A DNA stretch of 64,000 bases, from NCBI GenBank assembly GCA_964563645.1, contig CAZLXJ010000055.1, positions 6,920 to 70,919 on the forward strand, written 5' to 3'. Every line of letters begins with the position of its first letter. Position 1 is the stretch's first letter. Positions 11,273 through 63,708 of the stretch are shown piece after piece. Source of the DNA: an uncultured Actinomycetota bacterium (lineage in GTDB: Bacteria > Actinomycetota > Humimicrobiia > Humimicrobiales > Humimicrobiaceae). The position numbers and the translations under genes were made by a program. Under the pieces are notes generated by a model. It was not told the origin of the DNA. It made no database searches and saw only the letters and a list, made by a program, of their open reading frames with translations.

Positions 11273-11781
11273 GAAATAAAAAAATAACAGGAAAACAGAT
11301 AGATAAACTTTTAAAAAAACTTGAGGATGACGCAAGCTCATCTGGCTATAATTTAAATCCCGATACTGCTTTTACAAGAAAACTTGTGGAAGGGCTGCTG
11401 ATAAACCTACAGAGATATGGATATCAGACATGTCCATGCAGGCTTGCATCGGGAAACAAAAAGGAAGACCTTGATATAATATGTCCGTGTGATTACAGGG
11501 ATCCGGATCTGGATGAATATGGAACATGTTATTGTGCTCTTTATTTAAGCAAAGAAGTAAAGTCAGGGAAAAAAGAAATAAAATATATTCCTGACAGGAG
11601 ACATGCAAAACCAGATAAATCAGATAAGACCGGCGGTATAGAAGGAAAGGATGATTTAAAATATCCTGTCTGGAGGTGCAGGGTTTGTGGTTATCTATGC
11701 GCAAGAGATAATCCTCCGGAGGTATGTCCGGTTTGTAAGGCAGAAAAGGAAAGATTCGAAAAGTTTATTAAGAATAGATAA
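11269..11781 (+). CDS. Ferredoxin:thioredoxin reductase catalytic-subunit-like protein fused to a C-terminal rubredoxin-like domain (FDR type)
   Basis: CPC-X14-CPC-X12-CYC cysteine pattern of the FTR catalytic chain. C-terminal WRCRVCGY..CPVCKA rubredoxin knuckles. Confidence 0.75.
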   Translation: MRNKKITGKQIDKLLKKLEDDASSSGYNLNPDTAFTRKLVEGLLINLQRYGYQTCPCRLASGNKKEDLDIICPCDYRDPDLDEYGTCYCALYLSKEVKSGKKEIKYIPDRRHAKPDKSDKTGGIEGKDDLKYPVWRCRVCGYLCARDNPPEVCPVCKAEKERFEKFIKNR

Positions 11782-11793
11782 TGAGATATACTG

Positions 11794-11822
11794 ATCCTGG
11801 CGGTAGAAAACCGGGATTTTTT
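11794..11822 (+). terminator. Hairpin plus T-run between the convergent FDR-like gene and dinB
   Basis: ATCCTGG-N10-CCGGGAT (7 bp, one G-U pair) followed by TTTTTT. Confidence 0.6.
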
Positions 11823-11824
11823 AA

Positions 11825-13009
11825 TTAGAGCCGGTCGATTACATCATCTCTTTCTATTAAATTTGCAAGGGTAACCTTATTTTCCCCAAATTTATTTGAT
11901 ATCGCATCAATCGCTTCAGTAAGATTTTCATTCCCATTATTTTTATTGTATATCAGGCTGCCTGGTTCGGATATACGCTCTAAGCCGCTTACCGATGCTC
12001 CTATAAGCCTTATTTTATTATGGTTTAGATCCATGGACTTTAAAAGTGATACTGTTGCCCTGTATATGTCAAAAATACCATATGTATTTTCACCAAGCAC
12101 CGCCCTCCTGGTGATTGTCCTGAAATTGGAAAATCTTAATTTAAGCGTAATTATTTTACCCCTGTATCCCCTGTACTTCATATTTATGGCGATTTTTTGT
12201 GAAAGAAGGAGAAGTGTGGATTTGAGTGTAGAAAGATCATTAATATCCTTACGGTATGTTATCTCCCGGCCTATCGACTTTACTTCAGGATTCGGATTAA
12301 CTTTTCTATTGTCTATTCCATTAGACATATCATGCATCATCCTGCCAGGTTCGCCGAATCTTGCTTCAATAATTTCCACAGGAGTATCTGCCAGATCTCC
12401 AATAGTATATATACCCATGGATTCAAGTTCTTTATTCGTAACATGTCCGACGCCATGGATATATGATACCGGAAGAAGCCTTATCTTTCTTAGTATCCTG
12501 CCTGTATTCTCCAGCACAGTCAGGCCGTTGGGTTTTCCCATGTTTGAGGCAAGCTTTGCGAGAAATTTATTTGGTCCCAACCCGGCAGAAGATGTAAGGT
12601 TGGTACTTTCGTAAATCCTGCCTTTTATTTTCTTTGCTATTTCAAGTGCATCTCCAAATAACTTTTCACAACCGGTAACGTCGAGGAAACCTTCATCGCA
12701 CCCTATAACCTCTACAAGCGGGGTAAAATTGTAGAATATGCTTCTTATTATCATTGATTCCCTCAAATATTTTTCCATGTTAACAGGTATAAATAAACCT
12801 TCTGGGCAGAGTTTTTTTGCCCTGCTGATAGGCATTCCGGAATGGATACCGTATTTCCTTGCCTCGTAAGAGGCGGTAGAGACCACACCCCTGTTTAACG
12901 GCCCTCCGACAATAAGAGGTTTATTTTTGTATCCGGGATTATCCCTCTGTTCTATCTGGGCAAAGAATGCATCCATATCTACATGGATTATTTTTCTTAA
13001 CTTTTCCAA
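11825..13009 (-). CDS. dinB: DNA polymerase IV (Y-family)
   Basis: IHVDMDAFFAQIE, DEGFLDV, KSIGREITY. Full length at 394 aa. Its start overlaps the dnaE stop by 13 nt. Confidence 0.9.
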   Translation of the reverse strand: MEKLRKIIHVDMDAFFAQIEQRDNPGYKNKPLIVGGPLNRGVVSTASYEARKYGIHSGMPISRAKKLCPEGLFIPVNMEKYLRESMIIRSIFYNFTPLVEVIGCDEGFLDVTGCEKLFGDALEIAKKIKGRIYESTNLTSSAGLGPNKFLAKLASNMGKPNGLTVLENTGRILRKIRLLPVSYIHGVGHVTNKELESMGIYTIGDLADTPVEIIEARFGEPGRMMHDMSNGIDNRKVNPNPEVKSIGREITYRKDINDLSTLKSTLLLLSQKIAINMKYRGYRGKIITLKLRFSNFRTITRRAVLGENTYGIFDIYRATVSLLKSMDLNHNKIRLIGASVSGLERISEPGSLIYNKNNGNENLTEAIDAISNKFGENKVTLANLIERDDVIDRL

Positions 13010-16000
13010 ACCGGCTCCGATCCTGCAAGTATGTTATATCTTAGAGCCTGGTTCCTACAGCTCCTTTTTATTTTTTTTAAAAGTGCCAGATCAATTGCTT
13101 CTCTGCCTGTGATGGTAATATCCCCATCCCTCTGTTCAGGATTTCCTCTTACGATCATAGCAGTGCTCTCTGTAAGTGTCTTGAAATATTTACTGTAAAC
13201 AGGAGGGAAAAACACCGATTCAAATATTCCGTCAATGTCTTCCATGGTGCAGAAGAGCATTTTTTTCCCATCTTTTGTATTTTCAACCCTCCGGTTAAGG
13301 ACAATTCCTGCACAATTAATATCACCGGGGCGGCTATTACCTATATTTTTGATAATTTTGGAGAAGTTGCCGCTTCTGCAGGGATTGAATTTCTCAAGCT
13401 CTTCCCTGAAATAGTCAAGAGGGGGATGGCTTATGCAGAATCCAAGTATTCTGAATTCTTCCTCAATTTTTTCTTCAATGCTGACATTGTTCTTTTTATT
13501 ACATTCAAGTTTAAATACAGGGTTTAATGCTGGGTGAGAGCGGCCGCAGGGAAAGTGTTTGAAGGTCCTGAGATAATAGAATAGTGCAAGGAGATTCTTC
13601 CTGCCTGTTCCGGTATAATCAAATCCTCCAACCCTTATCAGGTTTTCAACAGCATTTTTATTAAGAGAGGACTTCTTGATACACCTGTGATAAAAATCAA
13701 AAAAATCCTTAAAGCAGCCATTTTTTGCCCTTTCTTTTATTATAAGATTTGCCCCTGATGGACCAAGGTCCCTTATGGAAGTTAGCGGGACCCTTATGGC
13801 CTTCCCGTTATCTTCGGGGCTGAATCTGTATTTACTCTTATTTACATCGGGGAGCTTAAGGGCCAGCCCCAGCCTCCGGGCTTCTTCTATGTATTGTGCC
13901 TGCCTGTAATATCCGGAATTATTTGAAAGTATTGAAGATATGAGCTCTGCTGGAAAATATACCTTTAAGTAGGCTATTTTATAAGATATTTCACTGTAGG
14001 CGGCGGCGTGGGCCCTGACAAAGCCGTAACTTGCGAACCTGGATATTAAATCAAAAATACGCCTGGCAAAATCAAGGGAATAGCCTTTTTGAAGAGAACC
14101 CCTGATAAATTTCGACCTCTGCTTTTTCATTTCAGGCGAAGAAAGTCCGGTGATTGCTTTTCGAAGTACATCTGCTTCACTGAATGAGTAGCCTGCTATT
14201 TCTATTGCTATCCTCATAACCTGTTCCTGGTAAAGGATTACCCCATAGGTATCTTTTAAAATGGGTTCAAGATCTTTATGAATAAATACAGTATCTTCTC
14301 TTCCGAATTTTCTTTCTATAAAATTTTTGACCATGCCTGACCGCTGCGGGCCCGGCCGGTAAAGTGAGATAAGAAGGGTAATATCATCAAGGTTTGATGG
14401 TTTTAGCTTTTTTGCCAGAGACCTGATGCCGGAGCTTTCGAGCTGGAATACTCCCAGTGTATTTCCGCCCTTTATAATATCAAATACTTTTTTATCGCCA
14501 TGACTTATTTCAGATATATTTATATCAATATTCCTCCGCTTTTTAAGACTTTTGATTACATCACTTATAAGGCTGAGGCTTACAGAGCTTATAAGGTCTG
14601 TTTTTATAAGGCCGAGTCTTTTAATGCTTTCCATATCGTATTGTGTCATGATCCCTCCTGTATCCGAAAGAGTAAGCGGAACGGTTCCGGTAAGATCTCT
14701 GCGGGATATAATAAATGCAGATGGATGCAATGACATGTGTTTTATGTAATTTTCTATTTTTAAGGCGCAGGATAAGATATTCACAGGGATTCTGCCTTTC
14801 CCGAGAAGACCAGCAGCTTCTTTTATACTTTCCGGCGAAGCCCTCCCGGATGAAAAGCTTTCAGGTAAATCCGGCCTCTTTAATATATCATCGGTCTCAA
14901 ATTTTCCAAGTCCTGCTATCCTTCCTGCCTCTCTTACGGCTGCCCGCGGCCTTAGAGTTGAGAATAGGCATACTCTGGAAACATTTTCTGCCCCATATCT
15001 GGAAGAAAGGTAGGACAGCAGCTCACTTCTTCTCCTGCTGCAGATATCAATATCTATATCAGGGGGGCTTTTTCTTCCGGTGTTTAAAAACCTTTCAAAA
15101 TAAAGATTCTGCTCTACGGGGTCGACATCTGATATTCCCAGAAGATAGGATACAAGGCTTCCGGCAGCAGAACCTTTTCCGCATATGGGTATGTTTCTTT
15201 CCCTGGCAAATCCTGCCATGTCTGCGATTATAAGAAAATATCCGCTGAAACCTGTTTTTTCAATTATTTTGAGTTCCTTCTCAAGTCTGTAAAAGTACCT
15301 GGCATCAGGATAACACCCGAACCTCCGTATAAACCCCGTCATGCAGAGTTTTCTAAGGTAGCCTCCTGGACTGGTCTCTCCTGCAGGTATCTCAAAAAGG
15401 GGAAGCCAGGTCTTTCCCAGGTCCAGGTCCAGGTTGCATTTGCCGGATATGATAGAAGTATTTGATATGGCTTCCGGGATGTCCCGGAACATTGAAATAA
15501 TTTCTTCAGAAGACTTAAAATAATCTTCCCCGCCCGTTATAATCCTGAAAAAGGGATCTTTTTTCATACCCATTGATTTTAATTTGGAAAGATACCTGTA
15601 TATGCAGTAGCTTTTTTTATCTATGTAACGGACATTATTTGTAGCCACAGGAGGCAAATTGTTGGAAAGTGCAAAATTTGTGATTACTTCTGAAAGGTTA
15701 TTGTAAAAGCCGGTCTTTTGGAAGGGGACTCTCTGAATTTCTATATAAAAATCGCCTTCGAATATTTCAATACAGCGGTATGCAGCTTTTAAAGCCCCGT
15801 ACCTGTCTCCATTTTTAAGCAGATCGGGTATCTTGCCGTTAGGGCATCCGCTTAGCCCGATAAGACCTTCGCTGTTTTTGCTTAAATACTTAATATCTAT
15901 TGAAGGAACAGAGTGTTTCTTTTTCAGGTGGGACCTGCTTACTATGCGGCAGAGATTTTTATACCCCCTGAGATTTTTTGCCAGAAGTATCATGTGGGAC

Positions 16001-16227
16001 AGGCCGTCTATGTCAGACAAACATATTTCACATCCTATAATTGGTTTTATATTTGCGGATAAGGCACTTTCATAAAACTTGACCGCTCCACCCATCATAT
16101 ATCTGTCTGTCAGCGCAACAGCCTTCATATTGAGACCGGCTGCTGCTTTTATAAGGTCTCCTATCCTGACGGCGGATTCCATCAGGCTGTATTCGCTGTG
16201 CACATGAAGATGTGTAAAAGGAGTCAC
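12997..16227 (-). CDS. dnaE: DNA polymerase III alpha subunit, short (1076 aa) DnaE-family protein (DnaE2/DnaE3-like)
   Basis: PHP domain HLHVHSEYS, catalytic PPDIDIDI, C-terminal OB fold. No long C-terminal tail. Confidence 0.9.
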   Translation of the reverse strand: MTPFTHLHVHSEYSLMESAVRIGDLIKAAAGLNMKAVALTDRYMMGGAVKFYESALSANIKPIIGCEICLSDIDGLSHMILLAKNLRGYKNLCRIVSRSHLKKKHSVPSIDIKYLSKNSEGLIGLSGCPNGKIPDLLKNGDRYGALKAAYRCIEIFEGDFYIEIQRVPFQKTGFYNNLSEVITNFALSNNLPPVATNNVRYIDKKSYCIYRYLSKLKSMGMKKDPFFRIITGGEDYFKSSEEIISMFRDIPEAISNTSIISGKCNLDLDLGKTWLPLFEIPAGETSPGGYLRKLCMTGFIRRFGCYPDARYFYRLEKELKIIEKTGFSGYFLIIADMAGFARERNIPICGKGSAAGSLVSYLLGISDVDPVEQNLYFERFLNTGRKSPPDIDIDICSRRRSELLSYLSSRYGAENVSRVCLFSTLRPRAAVREAGRIAGLGKFETDDILKRPDLPESFSSGRASPESIKEAAGLLGKGRIPVNILSCALKIENYIKHMSLHPSAFIISRRDLTGTVPLTLSDTGGIMTQYDMESIKRLGLIKTDLISSVSLSLISDVIKSLKKRRNIDINISEISHGDKKVFDIIKGGNTLGVFQLESSGIRSLAKKLKPSNLDDITLLISLYRPGPQRSGMVKNFIERKFGREDTVFIHKDLEPILKDTYGVILYQEQVMRIAIEIAGYSFSEADVLRKAITGLSSPEMKKQRSKFIRGSLQKGYSLDFARRIFDLISRFASYGFVRAHAAAYSEISYKIAYLKVYFPAELISSILSNNSGYYRQAQYIEEARRLGLALKLPDVNKSKYRFSPEDNGKAIRVPLTSIRDLGPSGANLIIKERAKNGCFKDFFDFYHRCIKKSSLNKNAVENLIRVGGFDYTGTGRKNLLALFYYLRTFKHFPCGRSHPALNPVFKLECNKKNNVSIEEKIEEEFRILGFCISHPPLDYFREELEKFNPCRSGNFSKIIKNIGNSRPGDINCAGIVLNRRVENTKDGKKMLFCTMEDIDGIFESVFFPPVYSKYFKTLTESTAMIVRGNPEQRDGDITITGREAIDLALLKKIKRSCRNQALRYNILAGSEPVWKS

Positions 16228-16264
16228 TTAATCCTCACCTGTTTCCATTTTTCTAAAAGAGCGC

Positions 16265-16885
16265 TTACCGCAATGCCCTCTGGACGGCTACCACTTTCCC
16301 CTGGATTAAAGGATCTGATTCCATTATCATGGGCATATATTCCGGATTAGAAGACCTGAGTTCAACATATTTTTCTTTTCTGTAAAATCTTTTTACTACA
16401 GCTTCGTCACCTATAAGCGCTACCACTATGTCACCATTATCTGCTACTGGTTGTGATCGTACTGCTATAATATCCCCGTCGAGTATATGGTCTCCGACCA
16501 TGCTGTCTCCATGAACCCTGAGAGCAAAATCAGCATTTCCCCTTATTATATCGGCAGGGAAGGGGATACGGTCTTCAATGTTTTCTTCAGCAAGGACAGG
16601 CCTTCCTGCGGCTATCCTTCCTATGAGAGGGAGATACAGGGCTTCCTTTTCGGTACCCCGGCCCAGTGTCTCCAGGGCCTTCTTTGTTAGTTTTATGGAG
16701 CGGGCAGATGATCTTCTTTCTATATATCCCTTTCTTTCCAGTGAATACAGGTGATCGGAAATCCCCCTCGGGGAATTGATATAAAGCATACCTGCAAGCT
16801 CCCTTATGGAGGGAGGATAGCTGTTTGCCAGCATATAATTGTATATTTTTTTAAGAACCAGATGCTGTCTGCCGGTAAGTCTCAA
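16265..16885 (-). CDS. lexA: LexA-family repressor, paralog 2 (first gene of the lexA-dnaE-dinB unit)
   Basis: Winged HTH (SIRELAGMLYINSPRGISDHLYSLERKGYIER), AAG cleavage site, GDSM serine and VKRF lysine. TTG start with a GGAGG RBS. Confidence 0.85.
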   Translation of the reverse strand: MRLTGRQHLVLKKIYNYMLANSYPPSIRELAGMLYINSPRGISDHLYSLERKGYIERRSSARSIKLTKKALETLGRGTEKEALYLPLIGRIAAGRPVLAEENIEDRIPFPADIIRGNADFALRVHGDSMVGDHILDGDIIAVRSQPVADNGDIVVALIGDEAVVKRFYRKEKYVELRSSNPEYMPMIMESDPLIQGKVVAVQRALR

Positions 16886-16970
16886 TCAAAGCCTCCAGAT
16901 TTGAAAATTGAAATAATTCCTGTAGTTCCAGTTCCAGCCTGCCGGAGTTTACCTGCTTGATATTATTATA

Positions 16971-17002
16971 TATAATTACTATACAAATGTATAGTAATTA
17001 TA
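16971..17002. promoter_or_regulatory. 32-bp palindrome (15-nt perfect arms, 2-nt centre), candidate operator in the divergent region between lexA paralog 2 and the 3D-domain gene
   Basis: TATAATTACTATACA-AA-TGTATAGTAATTATA. The outer hexamers read TATAAT on each strand. Confidence 0.45.
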
Positions 17003-17205
17003 GGGATATTTTTTAAAAGGCTGCACCGGTAATTATTTTATTAATCAATTTTTGCAAACAATTTTTTAACAAATTTATCTTACATATAATATATTTTCTG
17101 TTGATTTTTGAGAAAAAGCCTGTATAATCCATGGTTTTGGTGATTGTTTATTAAATAAAGTATTTATTAAATAATCAATATTTTTGTTTTGCTTATTAAA
17201 AAAAG

Positions 17206-17721
17206 GTGGAAATGACAAATAGATATAACATAGTTATCAATATACTGTTCTGGATCCTGATTGCTGTACTTGTCTTTGCAGCGGCTGTAACAGTTCTTAC
17301 AAAGAATGGACATATAGATCCATTTATACTAAAAACTGAAACAGAAGTTGTTGTAGAAAAAGAACCGGTTGTGATAACAAAAGTAGAAAAAATAAAGGAA
17401 GAAACGGAATGGTTCTATTTTATTGCAACAGGCTATAGTGCAAATGACCCGAAGCAGGGTACAAACAATATAACAGCTACGGGTAAACAGATAAGGGAAG
17501 GTATGATAGCAGTCGACCCCGATATAATACCTCTTGGAACAAAAGTAGAAATCAAAGACCTCGGTATTTTCACCGCAGAAGATACGGGTGGAAAGATCAG
17601 GGGGAACCGGATCGATGTATATTTTGATACCAGAGAAGAAGCCAAAAAATTTGGCCGCAGGATAATATGGGTCAGAATTCCTGACAGCAGCATAGAGCTT
17701 GCGGAAGAACTTTTTGAGTAG
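17206..17721 (+). CDS. 3D-domain cell-wall protein (MltA/RlpA-like fold) with N-terminal membrane anchor
   Basis: ATGYSANDPKQG..TATG..GMIAVDPDIIPLGTKV..AEDTGGKIRGNRIDVYF pattern. Confidence 0.7.
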   Translation: MEMTNRYNIVINILFWILIAVLVFAAAVTVLTKNGHIDPFILKTETEVVVEKEPVVITKVEKIKEETEWFYFIATGYSANDPKQGTNNITATGKQIREGMIAVDPDIIPLGTKVEIKDLGIFTAEDTGGKIRGNRIDVYFDTREEAKKFGRRIIWVRIPDSSIELAEELFE

Positions 17722-41058: not shown

Positions 41059-43914
41059 TTATTCAGCCTCATCTTCAGCATCTTCCGTAGATTCTTCCGG
41101 TATTTCCAGCTCAATTGTTACCTCTGACCCGTAACCAAGATACTGGCCGCCCTCCGGATCCTGGGATATTACTTCTCCATCTTCTGCATCATCTGGAATT
41201 ATCAGAACCGTAAAACCGGCATCTTCGAGTATCTCCACTGCATCTTCAAGTTCCATACCGCCTACACCGGGAACCAAAATCCCGCTGCTTATCCTTATTA
41301 TTATTTCTGACTTTTTATTATATGAAGTACTGCTTTCGGGAATCTGGGAAAAAACTTTTCCAATTTCTTTTTTACTATCTTCATATATCACATCTATATT
41401 TTCAAAACCATTTGAAGAAAGTACCGACAAAGCTTCCTCTTCTGTAAGCCCTATAACATCCGGTATCTCACCCTCGGGATTCTCTCCTTTGCTTATATAT
41501 AATTTTACTTCTGTGGATGGGGTAACCTGTGATCCGCCGGCCGGGCTCTGTCTGAATATAATGTCAACAGGGTTATCATCATTGAATTGATAAATGATTT
41601 CACTTATTTCCATATCAAACGACTTAAGGATATCTCTGGCACGGCCCATATCAAGCCCGGTAAGATCAGGCATTTTAAAAGTCTTCTCACCCTTGCTTAC
41701 ATAGAGTATTATGCTAAGTTTTTCTCCGGTAAGAGATTCAAGGAAGGACCCTGCCTCCGGACTCTGATCAAATATTATCCCACTGTTATAAGTATCATTA
41801 AATTCGCGGACTTCAGTAATCTCAATAAAAAGTTCATCTAAAATCTTTTTTGCCTCTTCAATACTAATACCCCTGACATCGGGGACCTCAACCCTGTTAT
41901 GCACGTCACATGTTTCCAGGGGTTCATTTCCTTTGACAAAGATCTTCCATGCCAGTTTTTCTTCGGGACACCATAGGACCGGTAAAAGTCCTGATTCACT
42001 GCATATCTCTATATCTATTAATTCGCCTTCCGGACTTTTAAAATCTGTTATATCTTTATCTTCCAGGGCAGACAGCATAAATTCACGCCATATGTCAGCA
42101 GGATATGTGCCTCCTACAACAACACGGCCGTTTATGGGCTCCATTGGATCGCTGCTTCCAGGGTTTCCCATCCAGACTACAGTAACCAGCTCCGGCGTGT
42201 AGCCTGCAAACCAGGCATCCTTATAGTCTGTTGTAGTTCCTGTCTTACCCGCTGCAGGTCTTCCGATATTGGCGCCACTGCCGGTACCGGACTCAATGAC
42301 TTTTTTAAGGATCCTGGTGATATAATGAGCCTGCGGCTCTTCAAGAATCCTGGTAGTGATGCCTTCTTCAGAATCATCATTCTGATATAAGATGTTCCCT
42401 TCAGAATCAGTTATTTTAAGTATGGTAACCGGTCGGTGATATAATCCTCCGGATGCAAGTGTTGAAAACATTTTGCTTATATCAAGAGGGGTAACACCTA
42501 CTTCCAATCCGCCAAGAGCAATAGCCGGATTGCTTCCTATATCGCTGATTTCCATCTGGCTGCATAGGGATTCGACATTCTCAGCACCAATTTCCATTAT
42601 AAGCTGTGCGTATACTACATTAACGGAATGGACTGTGCCGTCTGCAACGGAAATATTCTCACCAAACTTCTGTCCGCCATAGTTATCAACTATCCAGTCA
42701 GGACCTTCAGGCATATCTATTGTTATGGGCCCATCAGGGTTAAACTCATTTTTTGCAGAAAAGCCCTGCCTGACCGATTCCATAAGGACTGCTGTCTTGA
42801 AAACAGAACCCGGCTGTCTTTTACCCTGGGTTGCAATATTAAATTTACTTTCGGAATAATCCTTCCCGCCTATGAGTGTGTATATATATCCATTACCGGG
42901 ATCCGAGCAGATTAAAGAATAAGAAGGTTTTATTTCATCGGGGAAGACATTCAGCACGGCCTTTTCCGCTTTTTTCTGGAGGTCTGTATCGAGGGTGGTA
43001 TAGATCCTTAAGCCGCCTTTGAAAACATCATAATCATTGAATTTTTGTTCGTACAGCTGTTGTTTGACGAAATCTATAAAATAAGGGGCAAACCTTTTCC
43101 CGGATGCGGCATTTGATAAATTGAGTCCTTCACTGCTTATTATTACAGGTTCTGCAAGGGAGTCTATATATTCGTTTGAATTAATATAACCCTGCTCATA
43201 CATCACTTTAAGGACAAGATTCCTCCGCTGCTTTGCTTTTTCAACACTGTTAAAAGGAGAATATATTTCCGGTGATTGTACCAGGCCTGCAAGCAATGCC
43301 GCTTCCGGTAAGTTTAGACTTGCGGCATTCTTACCAAGATAGACCTGTGAGGCTTTTTCTATTCCATAAGTACCGGATCCAAAATAGACAGTATTTAAAT
43401 ACATCTCCAGTATCTTGTCTTTTGTATAATGCCTTTCAAGCTGTATCGCTATCAATGCTTCATTGATCTTGCGCCTCCAGGATTTTTCAGGTGAAAAATA
43501 AATATTTTTTATGAGCTGCTGTGTTATGGTGCTTCCTCCCTGAGCAAGTTCACCCGCCCTTATGTCGGCAATTGCCGCTCCTATGATCCTTATGTAATCT
43601 ACACCCTGATGATCATAGAATCTTTTGTCCTCGACAGCTACAATAGCGTCTTTTATTTTATCGGAAACCATGCTGAAGGGTACTATCTCCCTGTTCTCTT
43701 CTGCATGGAACTCCGTTATAAGATTACCGTCTATGTCATATAATTTTGAGGTCTGGGCTATGGGCGAAGGTGTAAGCTCTTCCAGCGTGGGAAGGGAGTT
43801 TATATATATGATAGATATTATTATGCTCAGGCCTGCAATTATTATAATCATTGCAGCAGCAAATATTAGAAAAATCCTGAGGCACCCGCCTGCTTTTTTT
43901 CCGCCTGAAATCAT
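41059..43914 (-). CDS. Class A penicillin-binding protein (glycosyltransferase + transpeptidase) with four C-terminal PASTA repeats
   Basis: GT51 motifs (EDKRFYDHQGVD, GGSTITQQL, RKINE), transpeptidase SVFK and KTGTT, then 4 PASTA-like repeats and an acidic tail. ATG at 43914 has a GGAAGG RBS (track TTG at 43932). Confidence 0.9.
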   Translation of the reverse strand: MISGGKKAGGCLRIFLIFAAAMIIIIAGLSIIISIIYINSLPTLEELTPSPIAQTSKLYDIDGNLITEFHAEENREIVPFSMVSDKIKDAIVAVEDKRFYDHQGVDYIRIIGAAIADIRAGELAQGGSTITQQLIKNIYFSPEKSWRRKINEALIAIQLERHYTKDKILEMYLNTVYFGSGTYGIEKASQVYLGKNAASLNLPEAALLAGLVQSPEIYSPFNSVEKAKQRRNLVLKVMYEQGYINSNEYIDSLAEPVIISSEGLNLSNAASGKRFAPYFIDFVKQQLYEQKFNDYDVFKGGLRIYTTLDTDLQKKAEKAVLNVFPDEIKPSYSLICSDPGNGYIYTLIGGKDYSESKFNIATQGKRQPGSVFKTAVLMESVRQGFSAKNEFNPDGPITIDMPEGPDWIVDNYGGQKFGENISVADGTVHSVNVVYAQLIMEIGAENVESLCSQMEISDIGSNPAIALGGLEVGVTPLDISKMFSTLASGGLYHRPVTILKITDSEGNILYQNDDSEEGITTRILEEPQAHYITRILKKVIESGTGSGANIGRPAAGKTGTTTDYKDAWFAGYTPELVTVVWMGNPGSSDPMEPINGRVVVGGTYPADIWREFMLSALEDKDITDFKSPEGELIDIEICSESGLLPVLWCPEEKLAWKIFVKGNEPLETCDVHNRVEVPDVRGISIEEAKKILDELFIEITEVREFNDTYNSGIIFDQSPEAGSFLESLTGEKLSIILYVSKGEKTFKMPDLTGLDMGRARDILKSFDMEISEIIYQFNDDNPVDIIFRQSPAGGSQVTPSTEVKLYISKGENPEGEIPDVIGLTEEEALSVLSSNGFENIDVIYEDSKKEIGKVFSQIPESSTSYNKKSEIIIRISSGILVPGVGGMELEDAVEILEDAGFTVLIIPDDAEDGEVISQDPEGGQYLGYGSEVTIELEIPEESTEDAEDEAE

Positions 43915-44125
43915 AAATACCTTCCATATCAATTTTTCTGAACTTAAGGAATATTATATAAAATTTAATCAAATATCAATAACATGCAATTTTCTGCCAA
44001 TCATATAAGGATTTTAAAAAATAAAGGGAAGATATGCATGGTTTGATGATGTAAATAGACATTATAAGCTGGCCTGTGTTAATATTTAACCTGATTTTAA
44101 ATTATTGTAATTTATAAGGCAGGAT

Positions 44126-47735: not shown

Positions 47736-47766
47736 TGATATTTATACGACAGTATAAGGGGGGAGA

Positions 47767-52634: not shown

Positions 52635-54176
52635 ATGGATATATGGATAACACTTTTAATAGTTGTAATTTCTATTATTGTAGGATTTTTTATAGGGTTT
52701 TCCTACCGTAAATATATTATTGATAACAAGGCAGGATCTGCTGCAGAAAAAGCATCTATGCTTTTAGAGAATGCAAAAAAAGAGGCCAATACGATAAAAA
52801 AAGAAGCTATTCTGGAGGGCAGGGAAGAGATACAGCAGCTTAAGAGCTTTACCGAGGATGACATAAGAAAACAAAAATCCGAGTTAAAGAAGATAGAGGA
52901 CAGGTTAATAAGCAGGGAAGAGTCTCTTGAAAAAAAGGCCGTTTATCTGGATAAAAAAGAGCAATCAACGGGAAACAGGATAACTGAACTGGATAAAAAG
53001 AATAAAAAACTGGATGAAATATTAAAGAAGGAGATTTTAAAGCTGGAGGCAATTGCCGAACTTACCAGGGAAGAAGCAAGAGCCATACTGACAAAGAAAA
53101 TTGAAGATGAAGCTAAATATGAAGCAGCCAAGAAGATAAGAGAAATAGAAGCAAAACTTAAGGAGGATTCAGATAAAACGGCAAGAAAAATAATCTCGCA
53201 GGCTATACAGAGATGCGCAATAGACCATGTTAGCGAGACGACTGTTTCTGTTGTAAATCTTCCGAATGATGAGATGAAGGGAAGGATAATAGGAAGAGAA
53301 GGAAGAAACATAAGAGTATTCGAGAATCTTACAGGGATTAACATAATAGTAGACGACACGCCCGAAGCAGTCATACTGTCTTCATTTGATCCTGTTAGAA
53401 GGGAAATAGCAAGGGTTACACTTGAAAACCTGATATTGGATGGAAGGATACACCCTGCCCGCATAGAGGAGATGTATGAAAAGGCAAGCAAGATAATAAA
53501 TAACGAGATAAAACTTGAGGGAGAGCAGGCTGTATTTGATACAGGTATATCAGGATTGAACCAGGGGATTATAAAAGTGCTTGGAAGATTAAAATACAGG
53601 ACAAGCTATGGACAGAATGTTCTCCTGCATTCAAAAGAAGTCGCATATATTGCTGGAATAATAGCTGCCGAACTGGGACTGAACATCAAAAAAGCAAAAA
53701 GGGCGGGACTCTTACACGATATTGGGAAAGCATTGACTCATGATATTGATGGTTCCCATGCTATAATTGGTGCAGAACTTGCCAGAAGGCTTCATGAAGA
53801 TGAAGAAATATGTCATGCAATAGAAGCACACCATAGTGAGGTGGAAGTTAAATCTATCCTTGATGTGATAATCCAGTCAGCTGATCAGATATCGGGTGGA
53901 AGGCCCGGAGCCCGTAGGGAAACTATTGAAAGTTATGTTAAAAGACTCGAATCACTTGAAAGGATAGCTGCAGAATTTAAAGGCATAGAAAAAGCTTTTG
54001 CAATTCAGGCTGGCAGAGAGATAAGGGTAATGGTAAGGCCGGAGGAAGTAGATGAGGACATGGCAATGGTAATTGCCAGAGATATAGCCAATAAGATTGA
54101 AAGTGAGATGGAGTATCCGGGACAGATAAAGGTTACTGTAATAAGAGAAAGCCGGGCAATAGAATATGCAAAATAG
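52635..54176 (+). CDS. rny: Ribonuclease Y
   Basis: N-terminal TM helix, coiled coil, KH (GRIIGREGRNIR) and HD (LLHDIGK) domains. Confidence 0.95.
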   Translation: MDIWITLLIVVISIIVGFFIGFSYRKYIIDNKAGSAAEKASMLLENAKKEANTIKKEAILEGREEIQQLKSFTEDDIRKQKSELKKIEDRLISREESLEKKAVYLDKKEQSTGNRITELDKKNKKLDEILKKEILKLEAIAELTREEARAILTKKIEDEAKYEAAKKIREIEAKLKEDSDKTARKIISQAIQRCAIDHVSETTVSVVNLPNDEMKGRIIGREGRNIRVFENLTGINIIVDDTPEAVILSSFDPVRREIARVTLENLILDGRIHPARIEEMYEKASKIINNEIKLEGEQAVFDTGISGLNQGIIKVLGRLKYRTSYGQNVLLHSKEVAYIAGIIAAELGLNIKKAKRAGLLHDIGKALTHDIDGSHAIIGAELARRLHEDEEICHAIEAHHSEVEVKSILDVIIQSADQISGGRPGARRETIESYVKRLESLERIAAEFKGIEKAFAIQAGREIRVMVRPEEVDEDMAMVIARDIANKIESEMEYPGQIKVTVIRESRAIEYAK

Positions 54177-60166: not shown

Positions 60167-61459
60167 ATGATAAAAGAAAAAGCGCTTTTAATATTCATTG
60201 AATTTATAGGTAATACAAAAAAAGAAGGCAGGGTAAAGAGAGGGAAATATTCAAATAAAGATAATATTGAAGAGTTATCCAACCTTACAATTAGTGCAGG
60301 TGCAGAAATTGAAAAAGTCCTTACTTATAAACAGGAAAAACCAAATCCAAAATATTTTATCAGCAGCGGAAGGCTTAATAATATAAAGGGTATTTTAGAA
60401 GAAGAAAATATTGAACTTATTATTTTTGATGATGAAATAACTCCCACACAGCAGAGAAATCTGCAGGGTAAATTAAATAAGAAGGTTCTGGACAGGACTG
60501 CGCTTATCCTTGATATATTTGCGCAGAGAGCAAATAGCAGGGAAGGTAAATTACAGGTTGAGCTTGCGCAATTAGATTATCTTCTCCCAAGATTGACGGG
60601 AAGGGGAATAGAACTTTCAAGACTTGGCGGCGGAATAGGTACGAGGGGCCCCGGAGAGACAAAACTTGAGGTAGATAGAAGGAAAATTAGAAATAGAATT
60701 ACCAGTCTGAAAAAAAAGATTGATAAAATATCTGTTCAGAGGGAAACACAGAGAAAAAGCAGGGAAAATAATATTTTTCAGATATCACTTGTAGGATATA
60801 CGAACAGTGGTAAATCCACTCTTCTAAATTCTCTTACAAATTCTGAGGTTTATGTAAAAAACATGCTTTTTTCGACTCTTGATTCTACTACAAGAAAGTT
60901 AAATCTTGATATAAGACCAGAAGTTTTAATTACAGATACAGTGGGTTTTATTGATAAGCTCCCGCACCAGCTTATAGCAGCTTTTAAATCTACACTGGAG
61001 GAAGTAAGGATATCGGATCTAATGCTTATTATAGTTGATGCGAGCAATAATAATTTTGAATCAAATATATTAAGCGTGAAAAAAGTTTTGAAGGAAATTG
61101 ATGTATGGAGAAAACCTTTTTTTATAGTATTTAATAAAATTGACAAAATCCACCCTGAACTGTTAAAAAGACTGCGTTTCAAATACAGAAATTCAATTTT
61201 TGTTTCTGCTTTAAAAGGGACTGGCCTGGAAGAAATAAAATCAAAGATTAAAAAAATTATTGAAAAACATAATATGAATATAACAATAAGAATACCCTAT
61301 AACAATCAGAAAATTATTTCTTTTATATATGATAAATGCCATATTCTGGACAGGAAAGATTCAGAAACCGGTATTTTATTTGATCTTAATATAGAACCAA
61401 AATATAAAGACCAGCTTTTGCCGTTTATTTATAATAAAGAAAGAATAAAGATTTCTTAG
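60167..61459 (+). CDS. hflX: GTPase HflX
   Basis: LDIFAQRANSREGKLQVELAQL, GYTNSGKST, DTVGF, NKID. Confidence 0.9.
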   Translation: MIKEKALLIFIEFIGNTKKEGRVKRGKYSNKDNIEELSNLTISAGAEIEKVLTYKQEKPNPKYFISSGRLNNIKGILEEENIELIIFDDEITPTQQRNLQGKLNKKVLDRTALILDIFAQRANSREGKLQVELAQLDYLLPRLTGRGIELSRLGGGIGTRGPGETKLEVDRRKIRNRITSLKKKIDKISVQRETQRKSRENNIFQISLVGYTNSGKSTLLNSLTNSEVYVKNMLFSTLDSTTRKLNLDIRPEVLITDTVGFIDKLPHQLIAAFKSTLEEVRISDLMLIIVDASNNNFESNILSVKKVLKEIDVWRKPFFIVFNKIDKIHPELLKRLRFKYRNSIFVSALKGTGLEEIKSKIKKIIEKHNMNITIRIPYNNQKIISFIYDKCHILDRKDSETGILFDLNIEPKYKDQLLPFIYNKERIKIS

Positions 61460-62106
61460 AAATATTTTCTTATTATACCTATGACTTTTCCAAGGATTTT
61501 TATTTCCCTGACTACTACCGGTTCCATATGGTCATTTTCAGGTATTAGCTTTATTTCTGATTCACCTTTATAAAATCTTTTAACAGTAGCTTCATCTTCA
61601 AGCAGCGCAACTACTATCTCTCCGTTTATTGCTGTATTTTGCTTTCTTACTATTACCAGATCCCTGTCAAGGATGCCTGCGTTTACCATGCTGTCACCAT
61701 GGACGTTAAGCATAAATACATCGTGATTCCCCTTTACAAAATCCGGTGTTAAGGGAAAATAGTCTTCTATATTTTCTTCGGCTAGAATAGGTTTACCTGC
61801 AGCAACATTACCGATAATCGGAACAAATATTAGATTACCTGAGTGCAATTCAATGTTTTCATGTGCAGCTCTGTCTGTAGCTGTAAGTGAAAGTGCGCGG
61901 GGTTTTGACGCATCTCTTTTAAGATATCCCAATTCTTCCAATTTTTTTAAATGAGAATGAACAGTTGCAGATGAACTTAAGCCAACTGCTTTTGCAATCT
62001 CTCTTACCGATGGGGGATATCCTTCCTGTTTTATCTTGCTATTTATAAACTCCAGTATCTTTCTTTGCCTGAGGCCAATATTTGAATTTTGATCAGTGAA
62101 TTTCAT
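61456..62106 (-). CDS. lexA: LexA repressor, paralog 1 (canonical Gram-positive type)
   Basis: SVREIAKAVGLSSSATVHSHLKKLEELGYLKR, VAAGKP cleavage site, HGDSM, VKRF. The stop overlaps the hflX stop by 4 nt (convergent). Confidence 0.9.
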   Translation of the reverse strand: MKFTDQNSNIGLRQRKILEFINSKIKQEGYPPSVREIAKAVGLSSSATVHSHLKKLEELGYLKRDASKPRALSLTATDRAAHENIELHSGNLIFVPIIGNVAAGKPILAEENIEDYFPLTPDFVKGNHDVFMLNVHGDSMVNAGILDRDLVIVRKQNTAINGEIVVALLEDEATVKRFYKGESEIKLIPENDHMEPVVVREIKILGKVIGIIRKYF

Positions 62107-62143: not shown

Positions 62144-62157
62144 CAAACAAAGGTTCG
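62144..62157 (-). promoter_or_regulatory. Cheo-type SOS box upstream of lexA paralog 1
   Basis: In lexA sense it reads CGAACCTTTGTTTG (GAAC-N4-GTTT), overlapping the -35 position of a TATAAT at 62123-62118. Confidence 0.55.
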
Positions 62158-63226: not shown

Positions 63227-63312
63227 TTATATCAACAATAACAGTCATTTTAACAAAATAAGTAAAAAAAGTAATAATTTTTTTTAATTATAATGATTAA
63301 ACAAAAAAAATA

Positions 63313-63361
63313 TTGACACAAACATGTGTTCGGCTGTATTATATATACAAACATATGTTCG
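63313..63361 (+). promoter_or_regulatory. SOS-regulated promoter: TTGACA-N18-TATTAT with two Cheo-type LexA boxes
   Basis: Boxes CAAACATGTGTTCG (63319-63332, in the spacer) and CAAACATATGTTCG (63348-63361, just after the -10). The reverse complements fit CGAACRNRYGTTYG. Confidence 0.75.
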
Positions 63362-63408
63362 TAACAAATAATATAGATTTTTAAGTAATAAATTAAGAAG
63401 GTGAATAG

Positions 63409-63708
63409 ATGAAAAGGCAAATAGAAATAGGTATGAAAAAATTTTTTATGATAGTTTTGATAATAATAGTAAGTATACTGGTTATATTAGCTTTTTACAG
63501 CAACAGGTATAAATTTAATGGAATAAGTACTATAAGATATATGAAAGTCAGCATAAACGAAGAAATTAATATCAGCCAGCTGGCCGATAGATACTCAAAT
63601 CCTTATGAAAAAGATATATTCTTAAGTGAGTTGAAAAGAGTTAATAATTTATCAACAGATTCTATTTACGGGGGTACGGTTTTCATACCTGTATTTAAAT
63701 CGAATTAA
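63409..63708 (+). CDS. YneA-like SOS cell-division inhibitor (TM anchor + LysM-like domain)
   Basis: N-terminal TM helix. LysM-like ISQLADRYSNPYEKDIFLSELKRVNNLSTDSIYGGTVFIPV. Lies downstream of the dual LexA boxes. Confidence 0.65.
   Translation: MKRQIEIGMKKFFMIVLIIIVSILVILAFYSNRYKFNGISTIRYMKVSINEEINISQLADRYSNPYEKDIFLSELKRVNNLSTDSIYGGTVFIPVFKSN

Follow-up and report, generated by a model that had tools for sequence, protein, structure and literature searches.

In Mycobacterium and Caulobacter, the imuA-imuB-dnaE2 genes join a C-family DNA polymerase to ImuB, a Y-family protein that is catalytically dead, and ImuA is required for their function. A variant of this arrangement is found in Pseudomonas putida, where lexA2 is co-transcribed with imuA-imuB-imuC and this second LexA mediates damage induction (PMC5261740). 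Furthermore, DnaE2B-PolY-RecA modules with an active Y-family polymerase have been described in Bacteroidetes (Timinskas et al., 2026; PMC12926913), the DnaE3 of Bacillus subtilis is an error-prone member of the SOS regulon (PMC5627055), and SOS regulons include operons composed of a dinB-like gene and a Pol III alpha (dnaE) gene (PMC8565304). Here, we analyze a lexA2-dnaE-dinB cassette located in a stretch of 64,000 nucleotides (hereafter, the window) from an uncultured low-GC bacterium of the class Humimicrobiia, phylum Actinomycetota (contig CAZLXJ010000055.1, positions 6,920 to 70,919). The cassette differs from the P. putida, imuA-imuB-dnaE2, DnaE2B-PolY-RecA and B. subtilis systems in that its C-family member is derived from the DnaE1/3 side, its downstream Pol IV appears active, imuA is absent, and a private LexA with an operator other than the Cheo box is found in a Gram-positive-type lineage; our literature searches retrieved no description of such a cassette. 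We interpret lexA2-dnaE-dinB as a self-contained, autoregulated, probably DNA-damage-inducible two-polymerase operon, a reading to which we assign a probability of about 0.6.

The three genes are contiguous on the minus strand, as the sequence-only reading of this DNA had reported and as a check of the open reading frames (ORFs) confirmed. The first gene, lexA2 (16265..16885), encodes a LexA paralog of 206 amino acids (aa) and has a TTG start with a GGAGG ribosome-binding site (RBS) placed 6 nt upstream; dnaE (12997..16227, GTG start) encodes a C-family polymerase of 1076 aa, and dinB (11825..13009, TTG start) a Pol IV of 394 aa. Both distances given in that reading were measured again with the same result: lexA2 and dnaE are separated by 37 nt, and dnaE and dinB overlap by 13 nt. 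The lexA2-dnaE spacer (16228..16264, minus strand) carries the RBS GGTGAGGA, has an unremarkable fold (-3.1 kcal/mol, z +0.98), and showed no terminator-like site in a terminator scan. An internal promoter for dnaE was considered and discarded, only weak consensus matches being present within lexA2. The hairpin terminator formerly placed after dinB was not confirmed: dinB and a ferredoxin-thioredoxin-reductase-like gene converge on a hairpin (11784..11817) that, read on the minus strand, is weak (-6.9 kcal/mol, z -1.7) and lacks a T-run; the scan of the minus strand 3' of dinB revealed no terminator-like site, and the only T-run belongs to the plus strand and would serve the convergent gene as terminator. 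No imuA is present at the cassette locus, the 64-kb window holds no other large polymerase ORF, and a tblastn search with an E. coli RecA query found no recA in the window or in any examined locus.

Upstream of lexA2, a perfect 20-bp palindrome, TACTATAC-ATTT-GTATAGTA (16977..16996, minus strand), constitutes the putative LexA2 operator; the window holds a single copy of it, against an expectation of 0 matches from shuffled sequences. The top-scoring minus-strand promoter-like site of our scan (16965..16993), TATACA-17 nt-TATAAT with 10/12 consensus matches, has its -35 element and spacer inside this predicted operator; promoter-like sites numbered 24 in total, against 15.7 +/- 4.4 in shuffles, an excess of about 2 standard deviations. 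The core of the palindrome, the 18-mer ACTATACAwwTGTATAGy, was found upstream of lexA2 in 9 further loci whose LexA2 proteins display 50-89% identity (exact in 7, with one mismatch in L033 and L034), a TATAAT element follows the box by 6-9 nt in all orthologous loci, and the palindrome was never found in loci that lack lexA2. By its position and conservation, the palindrome is predicted to be an operator overlapping the promoter of lexA2 itself, that is, an autoregulatory site. A TATAC-N4-GTATA match at 47743, with 4 mismatches to the 18-mer, was treated as chance.

A genome scan seeded with DnaE yielded 25 loci, which included Candidatus Humimicrobiaceae, Ca. Hydromicrobium and Ca. Calidifonticultor, all of them taxa of the class Humimicrobiia, phylum Actinomycetota, most of the others being Actinomycetota metagenome-assembled genomes (MAGs). 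In these loci dnaE and dinB are adjacent wherever the locus extends far enough, and the neighbourhood reads pheST-rplT-rpmI-infC-radical SAM-thrS-(lytR)-bPH-3D-[lexA2]-dnaE-dinB-glutaredoxin/ferredoxin-thioredoxin reductase. Over the same loci, DinB is conserved more strongly than DnaE (63-76% against 44-63% identity). Ten independent loci of the LexA2 type were recognized (L001-6, which represent one relative, L008, L011, L022, L031, L033, L034, L035, L036 and L037), all from the class Humimicrobiia or from Actinomycetota MAGs, with LexA2 identities from 89% down to 47-51%; exact look-ups with the window LexA2 and with its identical cluster representative yielded no contig, and the relative with the 89% identical LexA2 was taken in their place. 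The order lexA-dnaE-dinB, with lexA2 first, is kept in all ten, and the palindrome lies on the promoter in nine, the tenth being a contig without upstream DNA. Gaps between lexA2 and dnaE range from 8 to 110 nt, and the spacing between dnaE and dinB from -19 to +21 nt, except in L022 (~0.4 kb). The closest relatives, from Mono Lake metagenomes and an Actinomycetota MAG, carry the three cassette genes in the same order as the window, with identities of 89% (LexA2), 84% (DnaE) and 90% (DinB). An origin from a prophage or mobile element was also considered, and was rejected in view of the class-wide conserved flanking synteny. One further contig (L026), with a DnaE 79% and a DinB 90% identical to those of the window, is labelled 'uncultured Atribacterota bacterium', probably owing to a binning or classification discrepancy.

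A second type of wiring was found at the same locus. In 14 loci that lack lexA2, a Cheo/LexA box, CGAAC-N4-GTTCG, is located 70-140 bp upstream of dnaE; in the main lexA2-less clade (12 loci) it lies within the spacer of a near-consensus promoter, TTGAC-CGAACATATGTTTG-GTAGTAATAT, and in L007 and L009 it comes after TTGCAA, immediately next to the -10 element. None of the examined loci carries both a LexA2 box and a Cheo box. The upstream DNA of L007 and L009 (Cheo state) matches that of L008 and L031 (lexA2 state) as far as CCAATAATTAC and diverges beyond it, which points to a recent swap of the regulatory module. In a neighbour-joining (NJ) tree of the cassette DnaEs, which carries no support values, the lexA2 state is basal and paraphyletic, and the Cheo state corresponds to one large derived clade plus L007; this topology suggests at least two replacements between the wiring states. 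In L025 (Ca. Hydromicrobium americanum) the Cheo box is also present, and an ORF of 466 aa with RRXRR and HNH domains (IscB-like) is inserted between the Cheo-box promoter and dnaE (L025, 4264-5810).

The window itself encodes a canonical LexA of 216 aa, lexA1 (61456..62106, minus strand), with a Cheo-type box (62144..62157; CGAACCTTTGTTTG on the minus strand) in its promoter, upstream of TGATATAAT. Two other Cheo boxes (63319..63361, plus strand; starts at 63319 and 63348) lie within and just after the TTGACA/TATTAT promoter of a small membrane ORF (63409-63708). No Cheo box with up to 2 mismatches was detected in 11500-17400, around the cassette. The presence of the LexA2 box at the cassette and of Cheo boxes at lexA1 indicates that two LexA regulons coexist in this genome, dnaE-dinB belonging to a predicted private LexA2 regulon that is set apart from the LexA1/Cheo regulon. 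A dedicated LexA is the first gene of the operon and its putative operator is unlike that of the general LexA, which is the P. putida type of arrangement.

LexA2 is recognized by the LexA model TIGR00498 (198 bits, cutoff 111), with a winged-helix LexA_DNA_bind domain (PF01726, 58 bits) and a Peptidase_S24 domain (PF00717, 113 bits), and shares only 41.6% identity with LexA1. The AAG, GDSM and VKR residues, on which the sequence-only reading had relied, are kept and are common to 17 aligned members of the clade; they align with A84-G85, S119 and K156 of E. coli LexA. The Ala-Gly pair, the Ser and the Lys are retained in proteins down to 47% identity, and this conservation of cleavage site and dyad across the clade argues for a retained self-cleavage ability. 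As also proposed earlier, the recognition helices of LexA2 and of the LexA at 61456-62106 differ in sequence. That of LexA2 reads SSP[KR]xxxDH across the clade and resembles the RSPNAAEEH of E. coli LexA, and the LexA1 helix, SSSATVHSHL, presumably resembles that of B. subtilis LexA. Likewise, the LexA2 box can be read as CTAT-N8-ATAG, to be set beside the E. coli box, CTGT-N8-ACAG.

This type of operator is not unique to the cassette. A metagenome scan for the LexA2 18-mer returned at least 120 loci; among the matches listed, 12 are Humimicrobiia-like, with the box upstream of lexA2 in 12/12 and the operator at the cassette only. In other contigs (GC 0.4-0.67) among the matches listed (L042-L161; e.g., L064, L081, L114, L147), the 18-mer lies directly upstream of SOS-type genes, namely lexA (at least 10 loci), umuD-umuC (at least 10), a radical-SAM repair-type gene (at least 10), DUF72-imuB-dnaE2 (at least 3, plus 1 with DUF72 only) and stand-alone dnaE2-like ORFs (at least 4). 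The LexAs of these contigs are 31-41% identical to LexA2 and share the helix FGFKSPKAAxDH; when one of them was used as query, LexAs from Desulfobacterales, Deltaproteobacteria, Dissulfuribacterales and Tectomicrobia were retrieved. Many of the 120 or more matches have no recognisable SOS gene nearby and may be due to chance. The position of the 18-mer before lexA, umuDC and imuB-dnaE2, together with the shared helix, indicates by sequence a genuine class of LexA/SOS box. The 18-mer appears to be the SOS box of a Desulfobacterales/Deltaproteobacteria-like group.

The DnaE of the cassette displays the PHP, DNA_pol3_alpha, finger, HHH_6 and OB domains, and its length of 1076 aa and the HLHVHSEYS and PDIDID motifs were confirmed. 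In an alignment of the window DnaE with 23 cassette relatives and 2 Omnitrophota DnaE1, the palm Asp triad is kept throughout (26/26), and this conservation indicates that DnaE should polymerise. The PHP site, which had been described as intact, retains only its first motif: its nine ligands read HHEREHCNR where the canonical signature would be HHDHEHCDH, 23/23 cassette orthologs checked depart from the canonical pattern, and the site scores as inactive by a published criterion (PMC12926913). The protein stops about 30 residues (33) past the OB fold, without a tau-binding C-terminal domain; it has no GQxxLF clamp motif, and the region corresponding to the internal clamp motif of DnaE1 is not conserved. 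By comparison, the ten closest full-length relatives that were checked (1137-1203 aa, 34-38% identical) all have a C-terminal domain of 81-151 aa; nearly all have a GQxxLF-type clamp motif, and nine the canonical HHDHEHCDH, the tenth lacking only the PHP signature.

Regarding its class, the best NCBIfam match of DnaE is the general DnaE/DnaE1 model (926 bits, equivalog cutoff 1002); the DnaE2 model PRK05672 gives 615 bits (cutoff 939), and the Bacilli DnaE3 model 754 bits, far below its cutoff of 1806. In an NJ phylogeny it falls on the DnaE1/3 side, away from the imuB-linked DnaE2s and beside short DnaEs, one of them from a Clostridia MAG; the cluster names of its homologs include one Tepidanaerobacteraceae and a few other phyla. 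By sequence it is therefore not a DnaE2, and its features are not those of a canonical replicase, since the DnaE1 score, C-terminal domain, HHDHEHCDH and GQxxLF are all lacking. With DnaE2/ImuC it shares the absence of a tau-binding domain and the degenerate PHP site; it does not share the linkage to imuA and a dead imuB, as no imuA is found and the Y-family partner keeps its catalytic motifs. A defective PHP site and an often missing C-terminal domain are DnaE3 traits, both found here: in the survey that provides these criteria, a defective PHP site is a DnaE3 hallmark and 16% of DnaE3 are truncated after the OB fold, no DnaE2 has a C-terminal domain, and 91% of DnaE1 have one (PMC3919608). 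On these sequence grounds, the cassette DnaE is classified as DnaE1/3 by descent and as DnaE2/3-like by features. Neither a polC nor a second dnaE was identified among the best 120-150 DnaE homologs, which were orthologs or bore no name, no whole genome of the lineage having been scanned for polC. The cassette DnaEs have in common an extreme C-terminal tail after the OB fold, [IL][LI]x6[VAS]W[KE] (window 12997-13095, residues ~1044-1076). Some cassette-type DnaEs (L022, P0193, P0203, P0206, P0209, P0217 and P0225) reach 1211-1366 aa through internal insertions, and a Pfam search of the long DnaE of L022 for inteins gave no match.

DinB matches the Pol IV equivalog PRK02406 (366 bits, cutoff 256) and the Pfam domains IMS, IMS_HHH_1 and IMS_C. 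It is full-length, with the DMDAFFA and CDEGFLD motifs in place as had been noted, and the D of DMDAFF and the D/E of CDEGFLD are kept in 24 sequences; DinB is thus predicted to be a catalytically intact Pol IV. The clamp-like peptide xNLF, which shows only loose conservation, precedes a conserved tail, E.L..AI..I...FG..K.t.A. A motif resembling the RecA N-terminus has been described for many Y-family polymerases (PMC12926913); the DinB tail, aligned with the N-terminus of E. coli RecA, gave a local score of 31, which was reached by 31/2000 shuffles, and its RecA-N-terminus-like character is only suggestive.

With these features at hand, the cassette can be set against the described systems. 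Like P. putida lexA2-imuABC (PMC5261740), the closest of them, it begins with a second LexA paralog, it pairs a C-family with a Y-family protein, and the genome also keeps a general LexA that has another operator; unlike it, there is no imuA, an intact Pol IV takes the place of the dead ImuB, dnaE precedes dinB, the C-family member is DnaE1/3-like and not DnaE2, and the host belongs to an uncultured actinobacterial class. With imuA-imuB-dnaE2 it shares a predicted LexA regulation and the association of a Y-family protein that would supply clamp and RecA-type contacts with a C-family polymerase devoid of the tau-binding domain; here, however, the Y-family partner appears active and the cassette contains no RecA-like gene. 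The resemblance to DnaE2B-PolY-RecA lies in a C-family member without proofreading or C-terminal domain, a seemingly active PolY with a tail that may correspond to the RecA-N-terminus motif, and the absence of ImuA and ImuB, but the cassette DnaE does not score as a DnaE2 and lies outside the imuB-linked DnaE2s in an NJ tree, and a dedicated LexA is added. The B. subtilis DnaE3 offers a parallel in its control by a LexA box, its lack of PHP proofreading and its proposed translesion-synthesis role, and the Cheo wiring of the sister lineages is of the same kind; in contrast, dnaE of B. subtilis shares no operon with lexA or a Y-family polymerase gene, and its product works in a cell that also has PolC.

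According to the mechanism that we propose, a LexA2 dimer would sit on the 20-bp palindrome, over the -35 element and spacer, and would restrain the single promoter to low, self-buffered expression of the three genes. Once RecA filaments have assembled on damaged DNA, they would induce LexA2 to cleave itself at Ala-Gly by means of its Ser/Lys dyad, and the ensuing derepression, with translational coupling through the 37-nt gap and the 13-nt overlap, would deliver DnaE and DinB together. DnaE would act as an active polymerase lacking PHP proofreading, the tau-binding tail and a canonical clamp motif, and DinB as an active Pol IV that carries a peptide similar to a clamp motif and a tail reminiscent of the RecA N-terminus; most likely, both would be paired in lesion bypass and extension, in a manner resembling ImuB-DnaE2, DnaE2B-PolY-RecA, or the SOS-induced B. 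subtilis DnaE3 with Y-family polymerases. Freshly made LexA2 would then reset the operon, and in the sister lineages dnaE-dinB would answer to the general LexA via the Cheo box. The strongest internal evidence for an SOS-type control is precisely this replacement of LexA2 and its box by the general SOS box. Regarding the cassette as it had first been read, its gene order, tight coupling, own repressor, active DinB and lack of ImuA have stood, the first two being conserved in ten loci together with a private operator, and its intact PHP site and terminator have not.

Several observations weigh against a damage-inducible accessory pair. By sequence, DnaE is not a DnaE2 (926 against 615 bits, cutoff 939; DnaE1/3 side of the NJ tree), and in every sampled member of the class it occupies a housekeeping locus (pheST-rplT-rpmI-infC-thrS ... 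dnaE), which suits a core, possibly essential polymerase better than it does an accessory mutator. With about 2.1-2.9 Mb, the genomes of relatives are small (PMC7325909), and DnaE2-type extras are typical of large genomes (PMC12926913). Furthermore, the likeness of the DinB tail to the RecA N-terminus is weak (score 31, equalled by 31/2000 shuffles), and the clamp-like peptide is conserved only loosely. Three scenarios remain for DnaE, namely an accessory polymerase in a genome that also has a DnaE1, a DnaE3-like protein working with an as yet unreported PolC, or the sole replicase. The last of these is disfavoured by the lack of a C-terminal domain, clamp motif and PHP activity, and a purely accessory role by the core locus, the affinity to DnaE1/3 and the small genome size. 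That the cassette DnaE is the only DnaE-type polymerase of the lineage and essential, as the partner of a PolC unreported in Actinomycetota or as a stripped sole replicase, is a possibility that we entertain tentatively. It takes an unlikely form if DnaE functions as a DnaE3 beside an unrecognised PolC, essential in lagging-strand primer extension and SOS-inducible as well, as in B. subtilis; the cassette would then be a replisome-subunit operon under a private LexA, with Pol IV stoichiometric to an essential polymerase. The defective PHP site and the missing C-terminal domain are consistent with this (PMC3919608), as are the SOS regulation of B. subtilis DnaE3 (PMC5627055), the DnaE1/3 grouping beside short DnaEs including one from a Clostridia MAG, the conserved core locus, the small genomes of the lineage (PMC7325909), and the Firmicutes-like appearance of the window (RNase Y, a penicillin-binding protein (PBP) with PASTA domains, Cheo boxes, 30/36 large ORFs sharing a strand, and a leading strand rich in purines). 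The strand bias, however, derives from one 64-kb window and is largely a coding-strand effect, the Bacilli DnaE3 model remains far below its cutoff (754 against 1806), and in two surveys PolC is confined to Firmicutes and a few other phyla, Actinobacteria not being among them (PMC3919608, PMC12926913). In the sequences examined no polC was found, no genome-wide scan for it having been made.

More doubtful still is a reading in which the genome has no C-family polymerase but the cassette DnaE, which alone would replicate the chromosome, the SOS control merely modulating a housekeeping gene. No surveyed bacterium is without a DnaE1/DnaE3-type gene (PMC12926913), and for this lineage the cassette DnaE is the only one seen; its top NCBIfam match is the general DnaE model, its locus is syntenic and conserved, and negative autoregulation by a cis-encoded repressor would guarantee basal expression. 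Nevertheless, all three replicase hallmarks are missing although nearly all of the ten nearest full-length relatives keep them, the score of 926 bits stays under the DnaE1 equivalog cutoff of 1002, and in most of the class a LexA box occupies the core of the only visible promoter of dnaE. Some LexA paralogs have diverged roles, and LexA2 might be a non-cleaving local repressor foreign to the SOS response, its adjacency to dnaE-dinB having no damage-related meaning; this we regard as very improbable, given that the Ala-Gly, Ser and Lys are kept down to 47% identity, that the sister lineages replace the repressor-operator unit with a canonical SOS box at the same promoter, and that Desulfobacterota-like contigs have lexA, umuDC and imuB-dnaE2 operons driven by an operator of this class.

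As a two-polymerase operon, the cassette would represent a third architecture of LexA-controlled C-family plus Y-family cassettes, built from an active Pol IV, a stripped DnaE1/3-derived polymerase and a private LexA. It would also offer a natural experiment in regulatory rewiring, in which one operon at one locus is governed either by a cis-encoded LexA2 and its operator or by the general LexA and the Cheo box. Furthermore, the helix SP[KR]xxxDH with the box TACTATAC-N4-GTATAGTA defines a LexA specificity class, shared by distant LexAs of Humimicrobiia and Desulfobacterota-like contigs, that may be useful for regulon prediction in uncultured lineages. Were DnaE essential, the cassette would bear on the coordination of replicative and translesion polymerases; were it in addition the only DnaE, a replisome polymerase would be transcribed from the promoter of a private self-cleaving LexA and always co-translated with Pol IV, which would be a built-in stoichiometric partner of the replicative polymerase throughout the class.

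Other features of the window were recorded. Near lexA1, the region 63305-63708 comprises the promoter TTGACA-[CAAACATGTGTTCG]-TATTAT, then the second Cheo box, an RBS and the small ORF (63409-63708), which encodes a single-pass membrane protein of 99 aa; a Pfam search of this ORF gave no match, and it looks like a candidate YneA-type SOS cell-division inhibitor. RNase Y is encoded at 52635-54176 and a class A PBP with four PASTA domains at 41059-43932; 30 of the 36 large ORFs lie on the plus strand, and both GC and AT skew are positive. Outside the lineage, short DnaEs were also found behind LexA-type boxes: L038 has the order lexA-DUF72-dnaE-dinB with AAAC-N4-GTTT boxes, L040 has the order ylxP-dnaE-rbfA-truB and two Cheo-like boxes, one of which differs from the consensus by no more than one mismatch, and in L029 a Cheo box precedes dnaE by 33 bp. 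From these three loci, SOS control of a stripped-down DnaE looks widespread.

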